IMG/VR virus record: IMGVR_UViG_3300026493_000016
Coordinates: 1-64,000 of that record
DNA: 64,000 nucleotides
Strand: one strand, 5' to 3'
Origin: a virus
Shown: in pieces, positions 3,381-52,542 of the stretch
Numbering within the stretch: position 1 is the first letter of the stretch
Layout: every line of letters begins with the position of its first letter
Translations under genes and position numbers: made by a program
Notes under the pieces: generated by a model
The model's input: the letters and a program-made list of their open reading frames with translations, nothing else
Database searches by the model: none
What the model was told of the DNA's origin: nothing

Positions 3381-3479
3381 TTATTTAAAAATTCCGACAA
3401 CTTTGTCTTTAATATCCCATACGAGGTAATAAAGACCAGCAGCTATAGTAACTAAAAACTCAAAAGCGTTATCGCGCAT
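3381..3479 (-). CDS. 32-aa hydrophobic peptide coupled to portal stop (TAATG)
   Basis: MRDNAFEFLVTIAAGLYYLVWDIKDKVVGIFK; start overlaps portal stop; GAGGT upstream. Confidence 0.5.
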   Translation of the reverse strand: MRDNAFEFLVTIAAGLYYLVWDIKDKVVGIFK

Positions 3480-5170
3480 TACTTCTTACCTCGCTTTGCA
3501 TCTTCATTCACAGTTGCTTTATTCTCACTCTTACCACCTTGCTTCATAGCAGTTCCGGATTTAACGCCCTTCACTTGTCCATCTTGCTTAGGTTTTCCTG
3601 CGTTACCATTAACAGCATCAGACTTACCATTCATCCCTTGCTGCTTCATCTCGGACATCTGTTTATCATCTGACTGACCTTCGGCTTCTTGCTGCTGGGC
3701 AATCATTTTCTCTTGCATGATTTGACCTTTAGACTGAACGTGGTATGGACTGTTGATTACATCTCCACCTTCGATTGCGCCGTATCCTAAGATAGCTCTT
3801 GCCTCGTTGAATGTTAATCCAACCTGAGTACGGAGTTCTAGTAACTCTAGCGCTTCTTTCTCTGTAGCGGCGTCCCCACCTACGAATTGGAATAGATACT
3901 CATCACCGAACTGTTTTACGATGTACTTGTTAATTGTATCTTCGATGAATTTAAGTAACGGCTCTAGACCTTTATCACGAGATATACGGTTCTTCTCTTT
4001 GGCAGACGTTTCATTTAATGAGCTACCTGATGAACCTGTGGCTCCTCCTCGGTTAGGGAAGTTAATCTCTGATGGGTCAATTGCGAAAATACTACACATA
4101 ACGTTGATAAGGTAGTTTAACCATCTCTCAAATTCCATATCCTTAGATGATTGTGTCATATTGATAAAGTTTACATCTTCAGCAGATACAACTGGAATCT
4201 TCCAAGCTCCGTTTACACCAGAGAACATTGATTGCCACTCTCGACGGAATGATTGCAACGCAGAACGTGATTGTTCTTGTCCGGTCTTAATGTGTAATAA
4301 GCCTCTTGTCGTACCGCCCTGAGCGAAGTAACGAGCATTGAATAGTTCGGTATTCTCATGATACTGAAGATGCTGTAAGCATATCTCAAGCTCGCTATAA
4401 CCGTATTTACCAACTGTGATATCTGTACGAGGATTGTGAACCTCCCACGCCATCTCGTTAGATTTAAAAGATGCTACCTTCTGGTTATCAATCATCTGTA
4501 CGTATTTATATGCGTCTTTACCTTTTGGTAGTTTACCATTAGAGTCTACTGCTGTAAAAATTGTTGATGCATCTCGAGCAGCAAACCTAGCTAGTTGTTT
4601 CTCTTTATTATAAATAAGTTCAAAGTTAATTTTATCGTATATTAGTCTATCGCGAGTAATCTTTTTAATGAACGTCCTAAACGTGTCTCTCGTCAAGTCT
4701 CCGTTATCTACGCCAGTGTACTCTAGGAAAGTCTCAATCTCTTTAATCTTCGCTTCCTCCGCCTTGCTAGGGTTCTTTAACGGGTCCTTAAGTCGAACCT
4801 CATATCCGACACCTTTAGTTGAGTACCGCGATGGAGTACAGAACATTGATACTTGATTGACACGTGTGTTTATGATAGCGTTGACTATAATATTCTTTCT
4901 GGACCATAACTTAAGCGTATCTAATAATCTATAATCCCCATCTCTTGATGGTGCTTCTTTATAATCTGGATTAACTGACATGGATGCGAGATACGGTTCC
5001 TCATAACCTTTTGTTCTACCTATATCTTTTTTGTCTCCAGATTTAGATACTACTTCTTGCTCTAGTCCGTTAATCATGACTGAGAAGTCACCCATGTCTT
5101 CTGGATTTAGAATATCCAGCTTTGACAGTGTGGTTGGTTTCTTCTTTCTAAACCACTTAAACGGATTCAT
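3479..5170 (-). CDS. Portal protein
   Basis: 563 aa; YGYSELE, GVNGAWKIPV, KDMEFERWLNYLINVMCSIFAIDPSEINFPNRGGATG, characteristic of Twort-like portals. Confidence 0.95.
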   Translation of the reverse strand: MNPFKWFRKKKPTTLSKLDILNPEDMGDFSVMINGLEQEVVSKSGDKKDIGRTKGYEEPYLASMSVNPDYKEAPSRDGDYRLLDTLKLWSRKNIIVNAIINTRVNQVSMFCTPSRYSTKGVGYEVRLKDPLKNPSKAEEAKIKEIETFLEYTGVDNGDLTRDTFRTFIKKITRDRLIYDKINFELIYNKEKQLARFAARDASTIFTAVDSNGKLPKGKDAYKYVQMIDNQKVASFKSNEMAWEVHNPRTDITVGKYGYSELEICLQHLQYHENTELFNARYFAQGGTTRGLLHIKTGQEQSRSALQSFRREWQSMFSGVNGAWKIPVVSAEDVNFINMTQSSKDMEFERWLNYLINVMCSIFAIDPSEINFPNRGGATGSSGSSLNETSAKEKNRISRDKGLEPLLKFIEDTINKYIVKQFGDEYLFQFVGGDAATEKEALELLELRTQVGLTFNEARAILGYGAIEGGDVINSPYHVQSKGQIMQEKMIAQQQEAEGQSDDKQMSEMKQQGMNGKSDAVNGNAGKPKQDGQVKGVKSGTAMKQGGKSENKATVNEDAKRGKK

Positions 5171-5189: not shown

Positions 5190-5459
5190 TTATTCGCTAC
5201 TAAATATTTTCCTAGCGTTCTTTACTTCATAGTAATCGGATAAAACAACTTCCCCTAAACTATCTTTTAGCTTCACTTTTGTATCATCTTCGTCCGACAA
5301 TCCTAAAAGTGTATATCGGTTATTTTCTAGGAATATATAAACAGTGACTTGTGTACCACCTAATAGTTTATAGTACGTAACTACTTCAATCCAAGAATAA
5401 CCTCGAGATAATAAAGTTTTAGCTGTTTTCCATTTTGCATCAGTTACATGAATTGACAA
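5190..5459 (-). CDS. Hypothetical protein upstream of portal
   Basis: 89-aa ORF, TTG start with AGAGGTG RBS. Confidence 0.7.
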   Translation of the reverse strand: MSIHVTDAKWKTAKTLLSRGYSWIEVVTYYKLLGGTQVTVYIFLENNRYTLLGLSDEDDTKVKLKDSLGEVVLSDYYEVKNARKIFSSE

Positions 5460-5547
5460 ATGGTTACACCTCTATCTTGTATAATATAATGGTTACTCGT
5501 ATGTATTAATTATAACACTATTCTATGTTATTACCTATTTGTGGACA

Positions 5548-5586
5548 TAAAAAAACCCTACTATAGTTACCGAACTAGTAGTAGGG
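5548..5586 (-). terminator. Rho-independent terminator
   Basis: CCCTACTACTAGTTCGGTAACTATAGTAGGG followed by T8 on minus strand. Confidence 0.8.
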
Positions 5587-5785
5587 AAAAAATAACCAGA
5601 GGGGGTGTTTCATGAGTACCGAAGTAATCATAAACGTTCAAACAATAAAAGGGGTTGAACAAACATGTTACCGCATACTTGTTCGAAAGGGTGTATAACA
5701 AACAAAAGAAAAAATAATGATATCCGTTCAGTCGGAGGAGAGAACATTGATATCTAGGGTTGTAAGGGGGAGCAACCCTTACAAT
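5548..5785 (-). ncRNA. Putative ~240-nt structured small RNA with C-rich (anti-SD) loops
   Basis: No ORF; upstream TTGACT-N17-TATATA; successive hairpins including a C(UUCG)G tetraloop; ends in hairpin + U8 terminator. Confidence 0.6.
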
Positions 5786-5788
5786 ATC

Positions 5789-5817
5789 TATATACCACTA
5801 TCTTAATGAAAAGTCAA
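5789..5817 (-). promoter_or_regulatory. Sigma-A-like promoter for the putative sRNA
   Basis: TTGACT-17 nt-TATATA with TG extended -10 (imperfect -10). Confidence 0.5.
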
Positions 5818-5843: not shown

Positions 5844-5872
5844 TTTGACAAAGGTGAATTGCTTATATAAAA
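5844..5872 (+). promoter_or_regulatory. Sigma-A promoter facing an AT-rich non-coding tract
   Basis: TTGACA-17 nt-TAAAAT, AT-rich UP element. Confidence 0.6.
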
Positions 5873-6233
5873 TTAAAACATACAGCTGAACCGGATGTTT
5901 ATGTTTTACGAATTTCTCTATATATTATATTGTTAAATATATATTATTAATAATTAATTAGTTATTATATATTATTAAACTATATATAAATAGAAGACTA
6001 GTTAAAACATAAACCCCCAACTCCGTCGGTGGTTTTAAATAAGAATATGAATATATTAATAATACAATATACTTATTAACAAAAGAAATGAACAGTATCA
6101 GATTAGGTTTACAATATATCAGTTAGTCTATTATAGACTACATCAAAAATTACATAATAGTTACGTGTTTTAAACCGTTGGTATCACTGGGTTTGTACGG
6201 GTTTTTTGTTAAAAACAAAATGTTTTAATTACA

Positions 6234-6274: not shown

Positions 6275-6505
6275 TTAACGATATACAATTTTAAACGATT
6301 GGATATTTTGTGCGACAATGTAAGCAGCATCAGTTTTAACTACAGCTGCTTTATATGCTAAAAATACAGGTGAGTTAGAACCTCGAACAGCGTTACCAAT
6401 TGTTGCTTCTGGTCTATCTACGATACCTGCCGTTACGAATAAATCATAATGCAAGAACCAAACCTCACCGTTTTGCATCGTTACTTCTACATCAAATTCT
6501 CTCAT
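6275..6505 (-). CDS. Hypothetical protein (small beta-rich)
   Basis: 76 aa, GGAGG RBS. Confidence 0.7.
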   Translation of the reverse strand: MREFDVEVTMQNGEVWFLHYDLFVTAGIVDRPEATIGNAVRGSNSPVFLAYKAAVVKTDAAYIVAQNIQSFKIVYR

Positions 6506-41596: not shown

Positions 41597-42094
41597 TTAT
41601 AACACTTCCTTATATAGTTCTATTCTTTTATCACGTGCTCTTTGTTCTTCTAATAAAGTCGCCACACCTCTATACACGGGATGATTATATTTTACGTTAT
41701 CTTTGTTTTTATTATTCATTAAACTTAATCGAATATCTATTACCGTTTGTATTAATGTAATCGCCTCATCAATTGGAACTGTTACAAATACGCGTTCTTC
41801 TAAAGGGTGTGCGAATACTGTTGTTTCTTTCAATGTTTGTTCGAAATCCATTTTGATGTGTATAAGCATCCAACCTACCGCCTCATCAAAGCTATTGAAG
41901 TTACAATTGAGTTGCTTAATGTCTTTGACTGATTCAGTTGCTTTCTGTATCCATACTTGTTCTTTAATGCTTAGTTGTTGTACAGTGTCTACATTGATTG
42001 TATAATCTGTATGCCCTGTTTGTAAGTAGAGCATGATATGTTTTAATGCTAAACGTTTAATAACTGTTAACTCATGACCTTCGAAACTGTACAT
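41597..42094 (-). CDS. Hypothetical protein
   Basis: 165 aa, AAGGAG RBS. Confidence 0.75.
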   Translation of the reverse strand: MYSFEGHELTVIKRLALKHIMLYLQTGHTDYTINVDTVQQLSIKEQVWIQKATESVKDIKQLNCNFNSFDEAVGWMLIHIKMDFEQTLKETTVFAHPLEERVFVTVPIDEAITLIQTVIDIRLSLMNNKNKDNVKYNHPVYRGVATLLEEQRARDKRIELYKEVL

Positions 42095-52376: not shown

Positions 52377-52542
52377 TTAAAACTACCACCTTATAAGTTT
52401 TTTTGTATTTCTTAACTGACTTCATTGTAACATATGCCGTCGAAAAGTGTCAACACTTTTTTTTATTGGCAACCCCCGCCCTTATTAGGCGGGACGCTCT
52501 GGACTTAATGCCCTTTGACTTTCGTCACTGTCCAGACAGTTC

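Follow-up and report, generated by a model that had tools for sequence, protein, structure and literature searches.

A new family of predicted C-rich RNAs, encoded ahead of the portal gene by Bastillevirinae that infect the Bacillus cereus group

In Bacillus, the small RNAs (sRNAs) RoxS, FsrA and CsfG pair their C-rich regions with ribosome-binding sites (RBSs) (PMC8216469), and RoxS can also stabilise a target (PMC5419742). Among phages, the tRNA region of T4 gives rise to RNAC and RNAD, two small stable RNAs of unknown role (PMC3014915), and members of Kayvirus (Herelleviridae) have abundant long non-coding RNAs resembling GOLLD and ROOL next to their tRNA genes (PMC10383478). In virulent phages with Gram-positive hosts, regulatory RNAs have hardly been explored. 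The c4 antisense repressor RNA of phages P1 and P7 acts on complementary sites in the transcript of its own operon. Here we describe an RNA gene located upstream of the portal gene, on the minus strand of a 64-kb stretch of DNA (positions 1 to 64,000, hereafter the window) of the viral record IMGVR_UViG_3300026493_000016, a record of about 146 kb (145.9-kb genome) whose closest relatives are Wphvirus (Bastillevirinae, Herelleviridae) phages of the Bacillus cereus group. No regulatory RNA was described for Bastille-like Bacillus phages in Rfam, in about 100 GenBank records or in the literature searched. We rate the RNA gene as real and as a new family within Bastillevirinae, its functional kind being one that is already known. 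The explanation that we rank first, tentatively and with somewhat less than even confidence, is a stand-alone minus-strand gene for a trans-acting C-rich-region sRNA of about 235 nucleotides (nt) that would act like RoxS, FsrA and RsaE.

Anatomy and conservation of the RNA gene

A discrete, unannotated minus-strand RNA gene had been proposed at this locus in a sequence-only reading, and the analysis bore this out: from about position 5785 to 5549, a predicted promoter leads into about 235 nt without a conserved open reading frame (ORF), with a series of hairpins and a predicted terminator of its own, and the gene is conserved in relatives (Table 1). It is present in single copy in the phage genome and lies in a 780-bp gap between two minus-strand genes, the portal gene being on the same strand. 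The promoter, which had been given as TTGACT-N17-TATATA, was read directly, together with a TG extension, and the tail of the terminator comprised seven U residues instead of the eight reported. A consensus promoter scan missed this promoter because its -10 box ends in A and not in T. Among the Wphvirus representatives, the TTGAC of the -35 box was invariant (10/10), the sequence upstream of it having diverged fully in Crookii and W.Ph., and TGGTATAT of the -10 region was invariant in the Wphvirus alignment. The distance from the -10 box to hairpin 1 matched that found for TGtTATAAT in Evoli and for a perfect TATAAT in BigBertha. An SPO1-type late promoter (GATATT, 5788-5783) was also considered and rejected, its spacing to any -35-like box being wrong.

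The five C-rich tracts listed in that reading were all found in their places. The RNA holds six runs of three or more C in 237 nt, matched by 0.25% of the genome windows of the same size (both strands), and two runs of G only, both buried in stems; the C runs have no G-rich partner inside the RNA. They are exposed in the hairpin 2 loop and in three linkers, with mean probabilities of being unpaired of 0.56-0.86, which agrees with the loops and linkers first assigned to them, except for motif 1, half of which the conserved fold hides in a stem. Similarly, the absence of ORFs holds as far as conserved ones are concerned. Short ORFs are present, with lengths of 39 and 44 amino acids (aa) for the minus strand and of 28-30 aa for the plus strand, but they were rejected as coding on both strands, as they lack an RBS or are broken by indels of 1-3 nt or 24 nt in relatives.

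Copies of the RNA at the same site upstream of the portal gene were found in three genera, with 54 records from Wphvirus, 15 from Bastillevirus and 30 from Bequatrovirus; in the 54 Wphvirus records, its 5' 140 nt occurred once per genome. An RNA-gene annotation over the element was present in none of these records, and 'hypothetical protein' calls in a few. In phage Tomato (MT584805), GenBank places a tRNA-Ser over the promoter and hairpins 1 and 2 (L005:886-974). This is probably a false tRNA call; at the locus, ARAGORN gave no match, whether run on the window or on the whole genome, and neither did the Rfam tRNA model.

A covariance model built from Wphvirus only detected the copy of the Bastillevirus Evoli (E = 1.5e-7), the core of which is identical in Bastille, CAM003 and Maceta. 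The order in Evoli is TGtTATAAT, a 5' hairpin (stem GUAGGA/UCCUGC, loop UGUUCC), a second hairpin that has CUCUCCUCCUCU in its loop, a hairpin 3 in which a compensated stem carries the loop CGGAAA, a 15-bp hairpin with a U run, and tRNA-Asn. In the Bequatrovirus BigBertha, the syntenic copy consists of TATAAT, AUAGGUU-CCCCCAU-AACCUAU, a hairpin with loop UUCUCCUCCUCU, more hairpins, a terminator and ATGTCCAC; the terminators of Bequatrovirus vary in sequence with compensation, the hairpin and U6 being kept. The ATGTCCAC that follows the U run is common to Wphvirus (window) and Bequatrovirus. In Caeruleovirus (23 records), a leader of about 170 nt behind TGcTATAAT stands directly before the first of 18 tRNAs; it contains a CUCCUUAU loop, and UUUCUCCUCCGAUUUUC forms the loop of a hairpin of 16 bp.

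Across genera, the position of the promoter, the 5'-end hairpin and the loop sequences were conserved, with a C-rich loop always present in hairpin 1. The CUCCUCC of the hairpin 2 loop was invariant in Wphvirus, Bastillevirus, Bequatrovirus and Caeruleovirus, where it is carried by four different stems. The conservation predicted for Bastille-like phages was thus observed, stems being kept by compensatory and G-U changes and C-rich motifs being kept as the stems vary. This applies unequally to the five motifs: those of the hairpin 1 and hairpin 2 loops (2/5) are kept across genera, but motifs 3 and 4 are kept loosely and motif 5 in tRNA-less Wphvirus only.

An IMG/VR pattern scan returned the known phages and one metagenomic contig (L019), and nothing more. 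With a loose gapped pattern, 63 matches were obtained on metagenome contigs, none of them a homologue by covariance model, and a weak covariance-model match within the window (41727-41880) was discarded as ordinary sequence with no C-rich loops. In two metagenomic relatives, the coding strand about 1.9 kb downstream of the portal gene holds a 12-bp hairpin whose loop is CCUCCUCCU (L133:3729-3780 and L139:2881-2930). Searches against Rfam at gathering and permissive thresholds gave no relevant match in the window or in the homologues of three other genera. Elsewhere in the window (52468-52541, minus strand), a match to the Rfam Pistol ribozyme covers the full model length, with 36.4 bits against a gathering threshold of 34.5.

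Fold and strand of the RNA

As minus-strand RNA, the element folded with -57.2 kcal/mol (z of -4.1 against shuffles). Because the plus strand folds as well (z of -4.3), fold energy alone gives no orientation. In alignment A3, which comprises ten distinct Wphvirus-type copies, all stem cells were paired when read as minus-strand RNA (269/269), versus 90% when read as plus-strand RNA, the lower value being due to constant and new G-U pairs that turn into A-C mismatches on that strand. Hairpin 3 showed two fully compensatory changes from A-U to G-C in W.Ph. and in the metagenomic relative L019, with a G-U intermediate in Crookii. Single changes that preserve pairing were observed in hairpin 1 (G-C to G-U in L019), in hairpin 2 (U-A to U-G in BPS10C) and in the terminator (U-A to U-G in Nemo). 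In BPS13, W.Ph. and L019, an extra self-contained hairpin of 24-26 nt follows hairpin 2 at the start of the linker; such an insertion is characteristic of structured RNAs and leaves no reading frame intact, nor do the indels of 1-3 nt in the U run of the linker.

The conserved Wphvirus fold pairs CCCUUACA with UGUAAGGG and leaves only UUGCUCC in the loop of hairpin 1. An alternative hairpin 1 with loop CUCCCCCUUA, which resembles hairpin 1 of Bequatrovirus, is disrupted in Crookii and W.Ph., where only the UGUAAGGG/CCCUUACA pairing is left. The C(UUCG)G that had been cited in favour of this strand is indeed present, but the hairpin that it caps (hairpin 4) is limited to the lineage of the window, BPS10C and BPS13, a different and longer hairpin being found in Nemo and Nigalana and none in the tRNA-bearing phages. 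Between genera, 11 pairs had changed on both sides, versus 2.2 in shuffles; the alignment behind this count was fitted to the model, leans to it and places hairpin 2 out of register for Evoli and Bequatrovirus. When MAFFT was used with no such fitting, AU, GU and GC occurred at one pair of the outer hairpin 2 stem and CG and UA at another.

Table 1. Positions in the window of the RNA gene, its parts and the neighbouring genes.
Feature	Position	Strand	Remarks
-35 box TTGACT	5817-5812	-	direct reading; followed by a 17-nt spacer
Extended -10 box TGgTATATA	5797-5789	-	TG at 5797-5796, TATATA at 5794-5789
Hairpin 1: UGUAAGGG / loop UUGCUCC / CCCUUACA	5783-5761	-	minimum free energy (MFE) fold; probably the 5' end of the RNA
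Alternative hairpin 1: AGGGUUG / CUCCCCCUUA / CAACCCU	5779-5756	-	mutually exclusive with MFE hairpin 1
C-rich tract 1, CUCCCCCUUA	5772-5763	-	
Hairpin 2: outer stem GAUAUC/GAUAUC, inner stem GUUC/GAAC, 12-nt loop UCUCCUCCGACU	5754-5719	-	loop at 5741-5730
C-rich tract 2, UCUCCUCCGA	5741-5732	-	
U-rich single-stranded linker ending in ACACCCUUUC	5718-5685	-	
C-rich tract 3, ACCCUUUCG	5692-5684	-	
Hairpin 3: 11-bp stem GAACAAGUAUG/CAUGUUUGUUC, loop CGGUAA	5684-5657	-	
Single-stranded AACCCCUUUUAU	5656-5645	-	CCC kept in Wphvirus and Evoli
C-rich tract 4, CCCCUUUUAU	5654-5645	-	
Hairpin 4, UUCG tetraloop	5631-5612	-	C(UUCG)G at 5624-5619; lineage-specific
C-rich tract 5, single-stranded CACCCCCUCU	5607-5598	-	mean probability of being unpaired 0.86; kept among tRNA-less Wphvirus
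Intrinsic terminator	5586-5549	-	13-bp bulged stem at 5586-5556, U7 at 5555-5549
Upstream small gene	6275-6505	-	own terminator at 6268-6240
89-aa gene preceding the portal gene	5190-5459	-	
Portal gene	3479-5170	-	

In the surroundings of the gene, the 89-aa gene before the portal gene has a promoter of the TGnTATAAT type just past the RNA terminator (5481-5520, minus strand), and similar promoters precede the small pre-portal gene in Bequatrovirus (BigBertha, L084:3600-3620) and Bastillevirus (Evoli, L083:3630-3645). Upstream of the RNA promoter, two terminator-like hairpins are found on the minus strand at 5866-5905 and 6005-6029 (AAAACAUA...UAUGUUUU with a U run, and CCGACGGAGUUGG with GGGUUUAUGUUUU), and a divergent, promoter-like TTGACA-17-TAAAAT on the plus strand at 5845-5873. 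Additional small transcripts may be produced near the RNA gene. An AT-rich, palindrome-rich block at about 5900-6050 is 100% identical to Nemo, Nigalana and Abinadi, and a comparable AT-rich block lies about 250 nt upstream of the RNA of BigBertha; this block may be a DNA-level element.

Proposed action and alternative explanations

Loops that are conserved over changing stems are the signature of seeds on a scaffold, and for this reason a trans-acting C-rich-region sRNA was ranked first. According to this proposal, a sigma-A-type promoter would drive the minus-strand RNA and the intrinsic terminator would end the transcript. The working parts would be the pyrimidine-rich loops and linkers, above all the CUCCUCC of hairpin 2, which would pair with the Shine-Dalgarno (SD) regions of mRNAs and alter their translation or stability. 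The best phage sites would be the GGAGGAG(A)-type RBSs of about 30 non-early genes.

Complementarity was analysed in the translation-initiation regions of this phage itself, with 256 roughly called genes and the early region set at 40.0-55.4 kb. GGAGG was present in the RBS of 109 of the 256 genes. Its commonest extension was AG, with GGAGGAG, often GGAGGAGAUAACAUG-like, in 30 genes and GGAGGTG, the exact 16S complement, in 3. The CUCCUCC loop is the exact complement of GGAGGAG, and the 5' arm of hairpin 2 extends the match toward the start codon. Whereas 30 of the 219 non-early RBSs contained GGAGGAG, none of the 37 early-region RBSs did. Predicted duplexes with early-region sites were weaker (p = 0.0005), the fit of the early sites to the 16S tail being the same. 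In addition, the true flanks of the hairpin 2 loop paired with non-early sites better than 97-99% of flank-shuffled versions. These results argue against a shut-off of early genes, and the early-to-late switch by early-gene silencing that had been suggested for this RNA is not supported by them; they are compatible with a role in adjusting host mRNAs or the genes expressed in the middle and late phases.

Several points weigh against a trans-acting C-rich-region sRNA. The RNA body is near-invariant within each genus, and most of the covariation comes from few lineages. In Wphvirus, the entire intergenic region 6300-5650, and not the RNA alone, is 90-100% identical in Nemo and Abinadi, the small genes flanking this block being 54-90% identical to those two phages. 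Invariance within a genus is therefore no particular mark of the RNA; when genera are compared, however, nothing but the RNA and the tRNAs can still be aligned. Motif 1 is half base-paired in the conserved fold. Complementarity itself is weak evidence, as any CU-rich loop complements the SD. No single target stood out among the initiation regions of the phage, the longest perfect matches (10-11 nt) being slightly above those of internal control windows. Moreover, gene calls were crude and several exploratory tests were run. Expression, action in trans and targets of the RNA are what we infer here, and the position of the element at the head of a tRNA operon in most genera leaves room for a role in cis.

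The region upstream of the portal gene is a tRNA island across Bastillevirinae, and the RNA site is the head of this island in most relatives. About a dozen Wphvirus, among them Zuko, Abinadi, BJ4, Tomato, Crookii and W.Ph., carry behind the conserved 5' module a hairpin, CUCUCCUC...GGGGAGAG, whose U tract is weak; tRNAs come next, and where annotated these are tRNA-Asn, -Glu and -Asp. Close relatives carry 3 tRNAs and other Bastillevirinae 5-19 at the syntenic site, and no tRNA gene was found by ARAGORN in the whole 145.9-kb genome of the window. An 837-nt tail-spike/pectate-lyase-like gene, present at the site in most relatives, is also absent from this genome. A strong terminator ends the RNA in tRNA-less Wphvirus (window, Nemo, Nigalana, BPS10C and BPS13), and the RNA is kept in Bequatrovirus, all of whose records are tRNA-less (30/30). 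The RNA thus outlasts the tRNAs, which argues for a function of its own.

This context underlies the alternative that survives best, although we regard it as unlikely. The element would be the 5' leader of a tRNA operon, that is, a nuclease-resistant segment that aids expression, processing or stability of the tRNA transcript and persists as a transcribed relic where the tRNAs were lost, with no role in trans. Such a leader would fit the pre-portal tRNA island, where the element immediately precedes the first tRNA in Bastillevirus, in Caeruleovirus and in some dozen Wphvirus. 5'-end hairpins protect Bacillus RNAs from RNase J1, and hairpin 1 begins within a few nt of the predicted 5' end. A hairpin-3-like stem-loop also recurs in the tRNA spacers of Caeruleovirus, where a 10-11-bp hairpin with the hairpin 3 loop UGCGGAAACA stands directly before a tRNA (L085:1904-1929 and L138:2069-2096); the stems of these hairpins are unrelated to hairpin 3 and show a compensatory change between the two phages, with a TATAAT-like box upstream. 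However, the RNA is near-unchanged and has its own strong terminator in the five tRNA-less Wphvirus named above and in the 30 Bequatrovirus, a terminator-like hairpin lies between the RNA and the first tRNA in tRNA-bearing relatives, and a mere stabiliser needs no invariant loops over changing stems.

We hold it improbable that the RNA is a protein-binding or decoy RNA, the CU-rich loops and the CGG(U/A)AA loop of which would bind a host or phage RNA-binding protein or nuclease that is thereby sequestered or recruited. Such a role would account for several similar exposed motifs on one scaffold, for a near-total invariance within genera that includes unpaired positions and exceeds what pairing seeds need, and for a hairpin 3 loop that is kept on unrelated stems and is not SD-complementary. 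Nevertheless, the element has no candidate partner gene linked to it, its motifs fit the known sRNA seed type, and we know of no Bacillus protein that recognises CUCC loops.

More improbable again is a cis attenuator, in which leader and terminator would control read-through into the tRNAs, the 837-nt tail-spike-like gene or the portal operon. The arrangement of promoter, long structured leader and terminator upstream of same-strand genes is that of an attenuator, two mutually exclusive hairpin 1 folds are available in Wphvirus, and the 5' arm of the terminator-like hairpin in tRNA-bearing Wphvirus (CUCUCCUC) repeats the hairpin 2 loop. The downstream gene varies among relatives, though, and the small pre-portal gene has its own TGnTATAAT promoter in the window, Evoli and BigBertha; furthermore, no conserved antiterminator pairing is present, and no Rfam riboswitch or T-box matched.

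Finally, a plus-strand or DNA signal, be it small ORFs with an SD, a GGA-rich sponge of the CsrA type or a DNA element in a conserved intergenic region, is very improbable: the plus strand does fold equally well and offers AGAGGGGGTG, 4 nt and ATG (28-aa ORF, 5612-5698) besides other short ORFs, and the intergenic block is highly conserved throughout in Wphvirus, with its AT-rich stretch 100% identical, but G-U pairs and one-sided changes are valid on the minus strand only (100% versus 90% of cells paired), promoter and terminator are minus-strand and conserved across genera, the starts of the plus-strand ORFs fall in the variable 3' part and are missing from Nemo and Abinadi, the linker indels are not multiples of three, and the block beyond the RNA and the tRNAs is not alignable between genera.

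Comparison with known systems

By analogy, the C-rich-region sRNAs of Bacillota (RoxS/RsaE, FsrA and CsfG; PMC8216469, PMC5419742, PMC6158497) appear to be the closest functional counterparts of the trans-acting RNA proposed here. A promoter of its own, an intrinsic terminator and no conserved ORF, the features that define this class, were predicted from sequence and conservation. Shared with these sRNAs are the sigma-A promoter combined with an intrinsic terminator, exposed SD-complementary C-rich tracts, a G-poor body and Bacillus hosts. In contrast to the RoxS/RsaE class, the phage RNA has twice the length, comes from a virulent phage, is associated with a tRNA island, and has CUCCUCC as its candidate seed rather than UCCC or CCCC. 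The RsaE/RoxS model RF01820 (gathering threshold of 79 bits) did not match the locus, even with E values up to 10 admitted, and its best match in the whole genome reached 9.2 bits, away from the locus. Judged by these searches, the RNA is not a member of the RsaE/RoxS family.

The c4 RNA of P1 and P7 is likewise a phage-encoded structured RNA with loops antisense to a ribosome-binding region. It appears to differ in that no conserved complementary site was recognised downstream of the RNA described here, where the genes vary, and this RNA gave no Rfam match; the site of the downstream gene, AGAGGUG, matches CACCCCCUCU only imperfectly. A packaging RNA of the phi29 type (Phage_pRNA), suggested by the portal neighbourhood, was rejected, as there was no Rfam match and no mutually complementary loops were found.

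Should the proposal be correct, pairing of an sRNA with host sites or with the RBS variant favoured by the phage would mean that phages considered for control of the B. cereus group have a further, post-transcriptional layer in their infection programme. The RNA is easy to test, since it is short, has one invariant candidate seed loop and is present in many cultured carriers, including classroom-isolated Bacillus thuringiensis phages.

In position, the closest analogues appear to be T4 RNAC and RNAD and the tRNA-adjacent RNAs of Kayvirus. The Kayvirus RNAs are several hundred nt long, large and structured, whereas the present one is a simple string of hairpins of about 235 nt, and no Rfam match to ROOL or GOLLD (500-800 nt) was found in the 64-kb window at gathering thresholds. 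RNAC and RNAD resemble it as small non-coding RNAs located inside a phage tRNA cluster or on its border, in the orientation of the tRNAs; going by the description of the T4 RNAs, phage family and host are different, and the RNA of the Bacillus phages has a promoter and a terminator of its own and is retained where tRNAs are lacking. We consider it possible, but doubtful, that convergent phage RNAs of one widespread class are located at tRNA islands or in front of packaging and structural genes, and that the present RNA is a lineage of this class. Its members would display anti-SD copies fitted to the RBS variant preferred by the phage (here CUCCUCC versus GGAGGAG) and govern middle and late translation or mRNA stability. 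If so, such a class would give a testable function to the small RNAs of phage tRNA regions (T4 RNAC and RNAD); if the action proposed for the Bacillus phage RNA is correct, that RNA itself would offer a model for those that are still unexplained.

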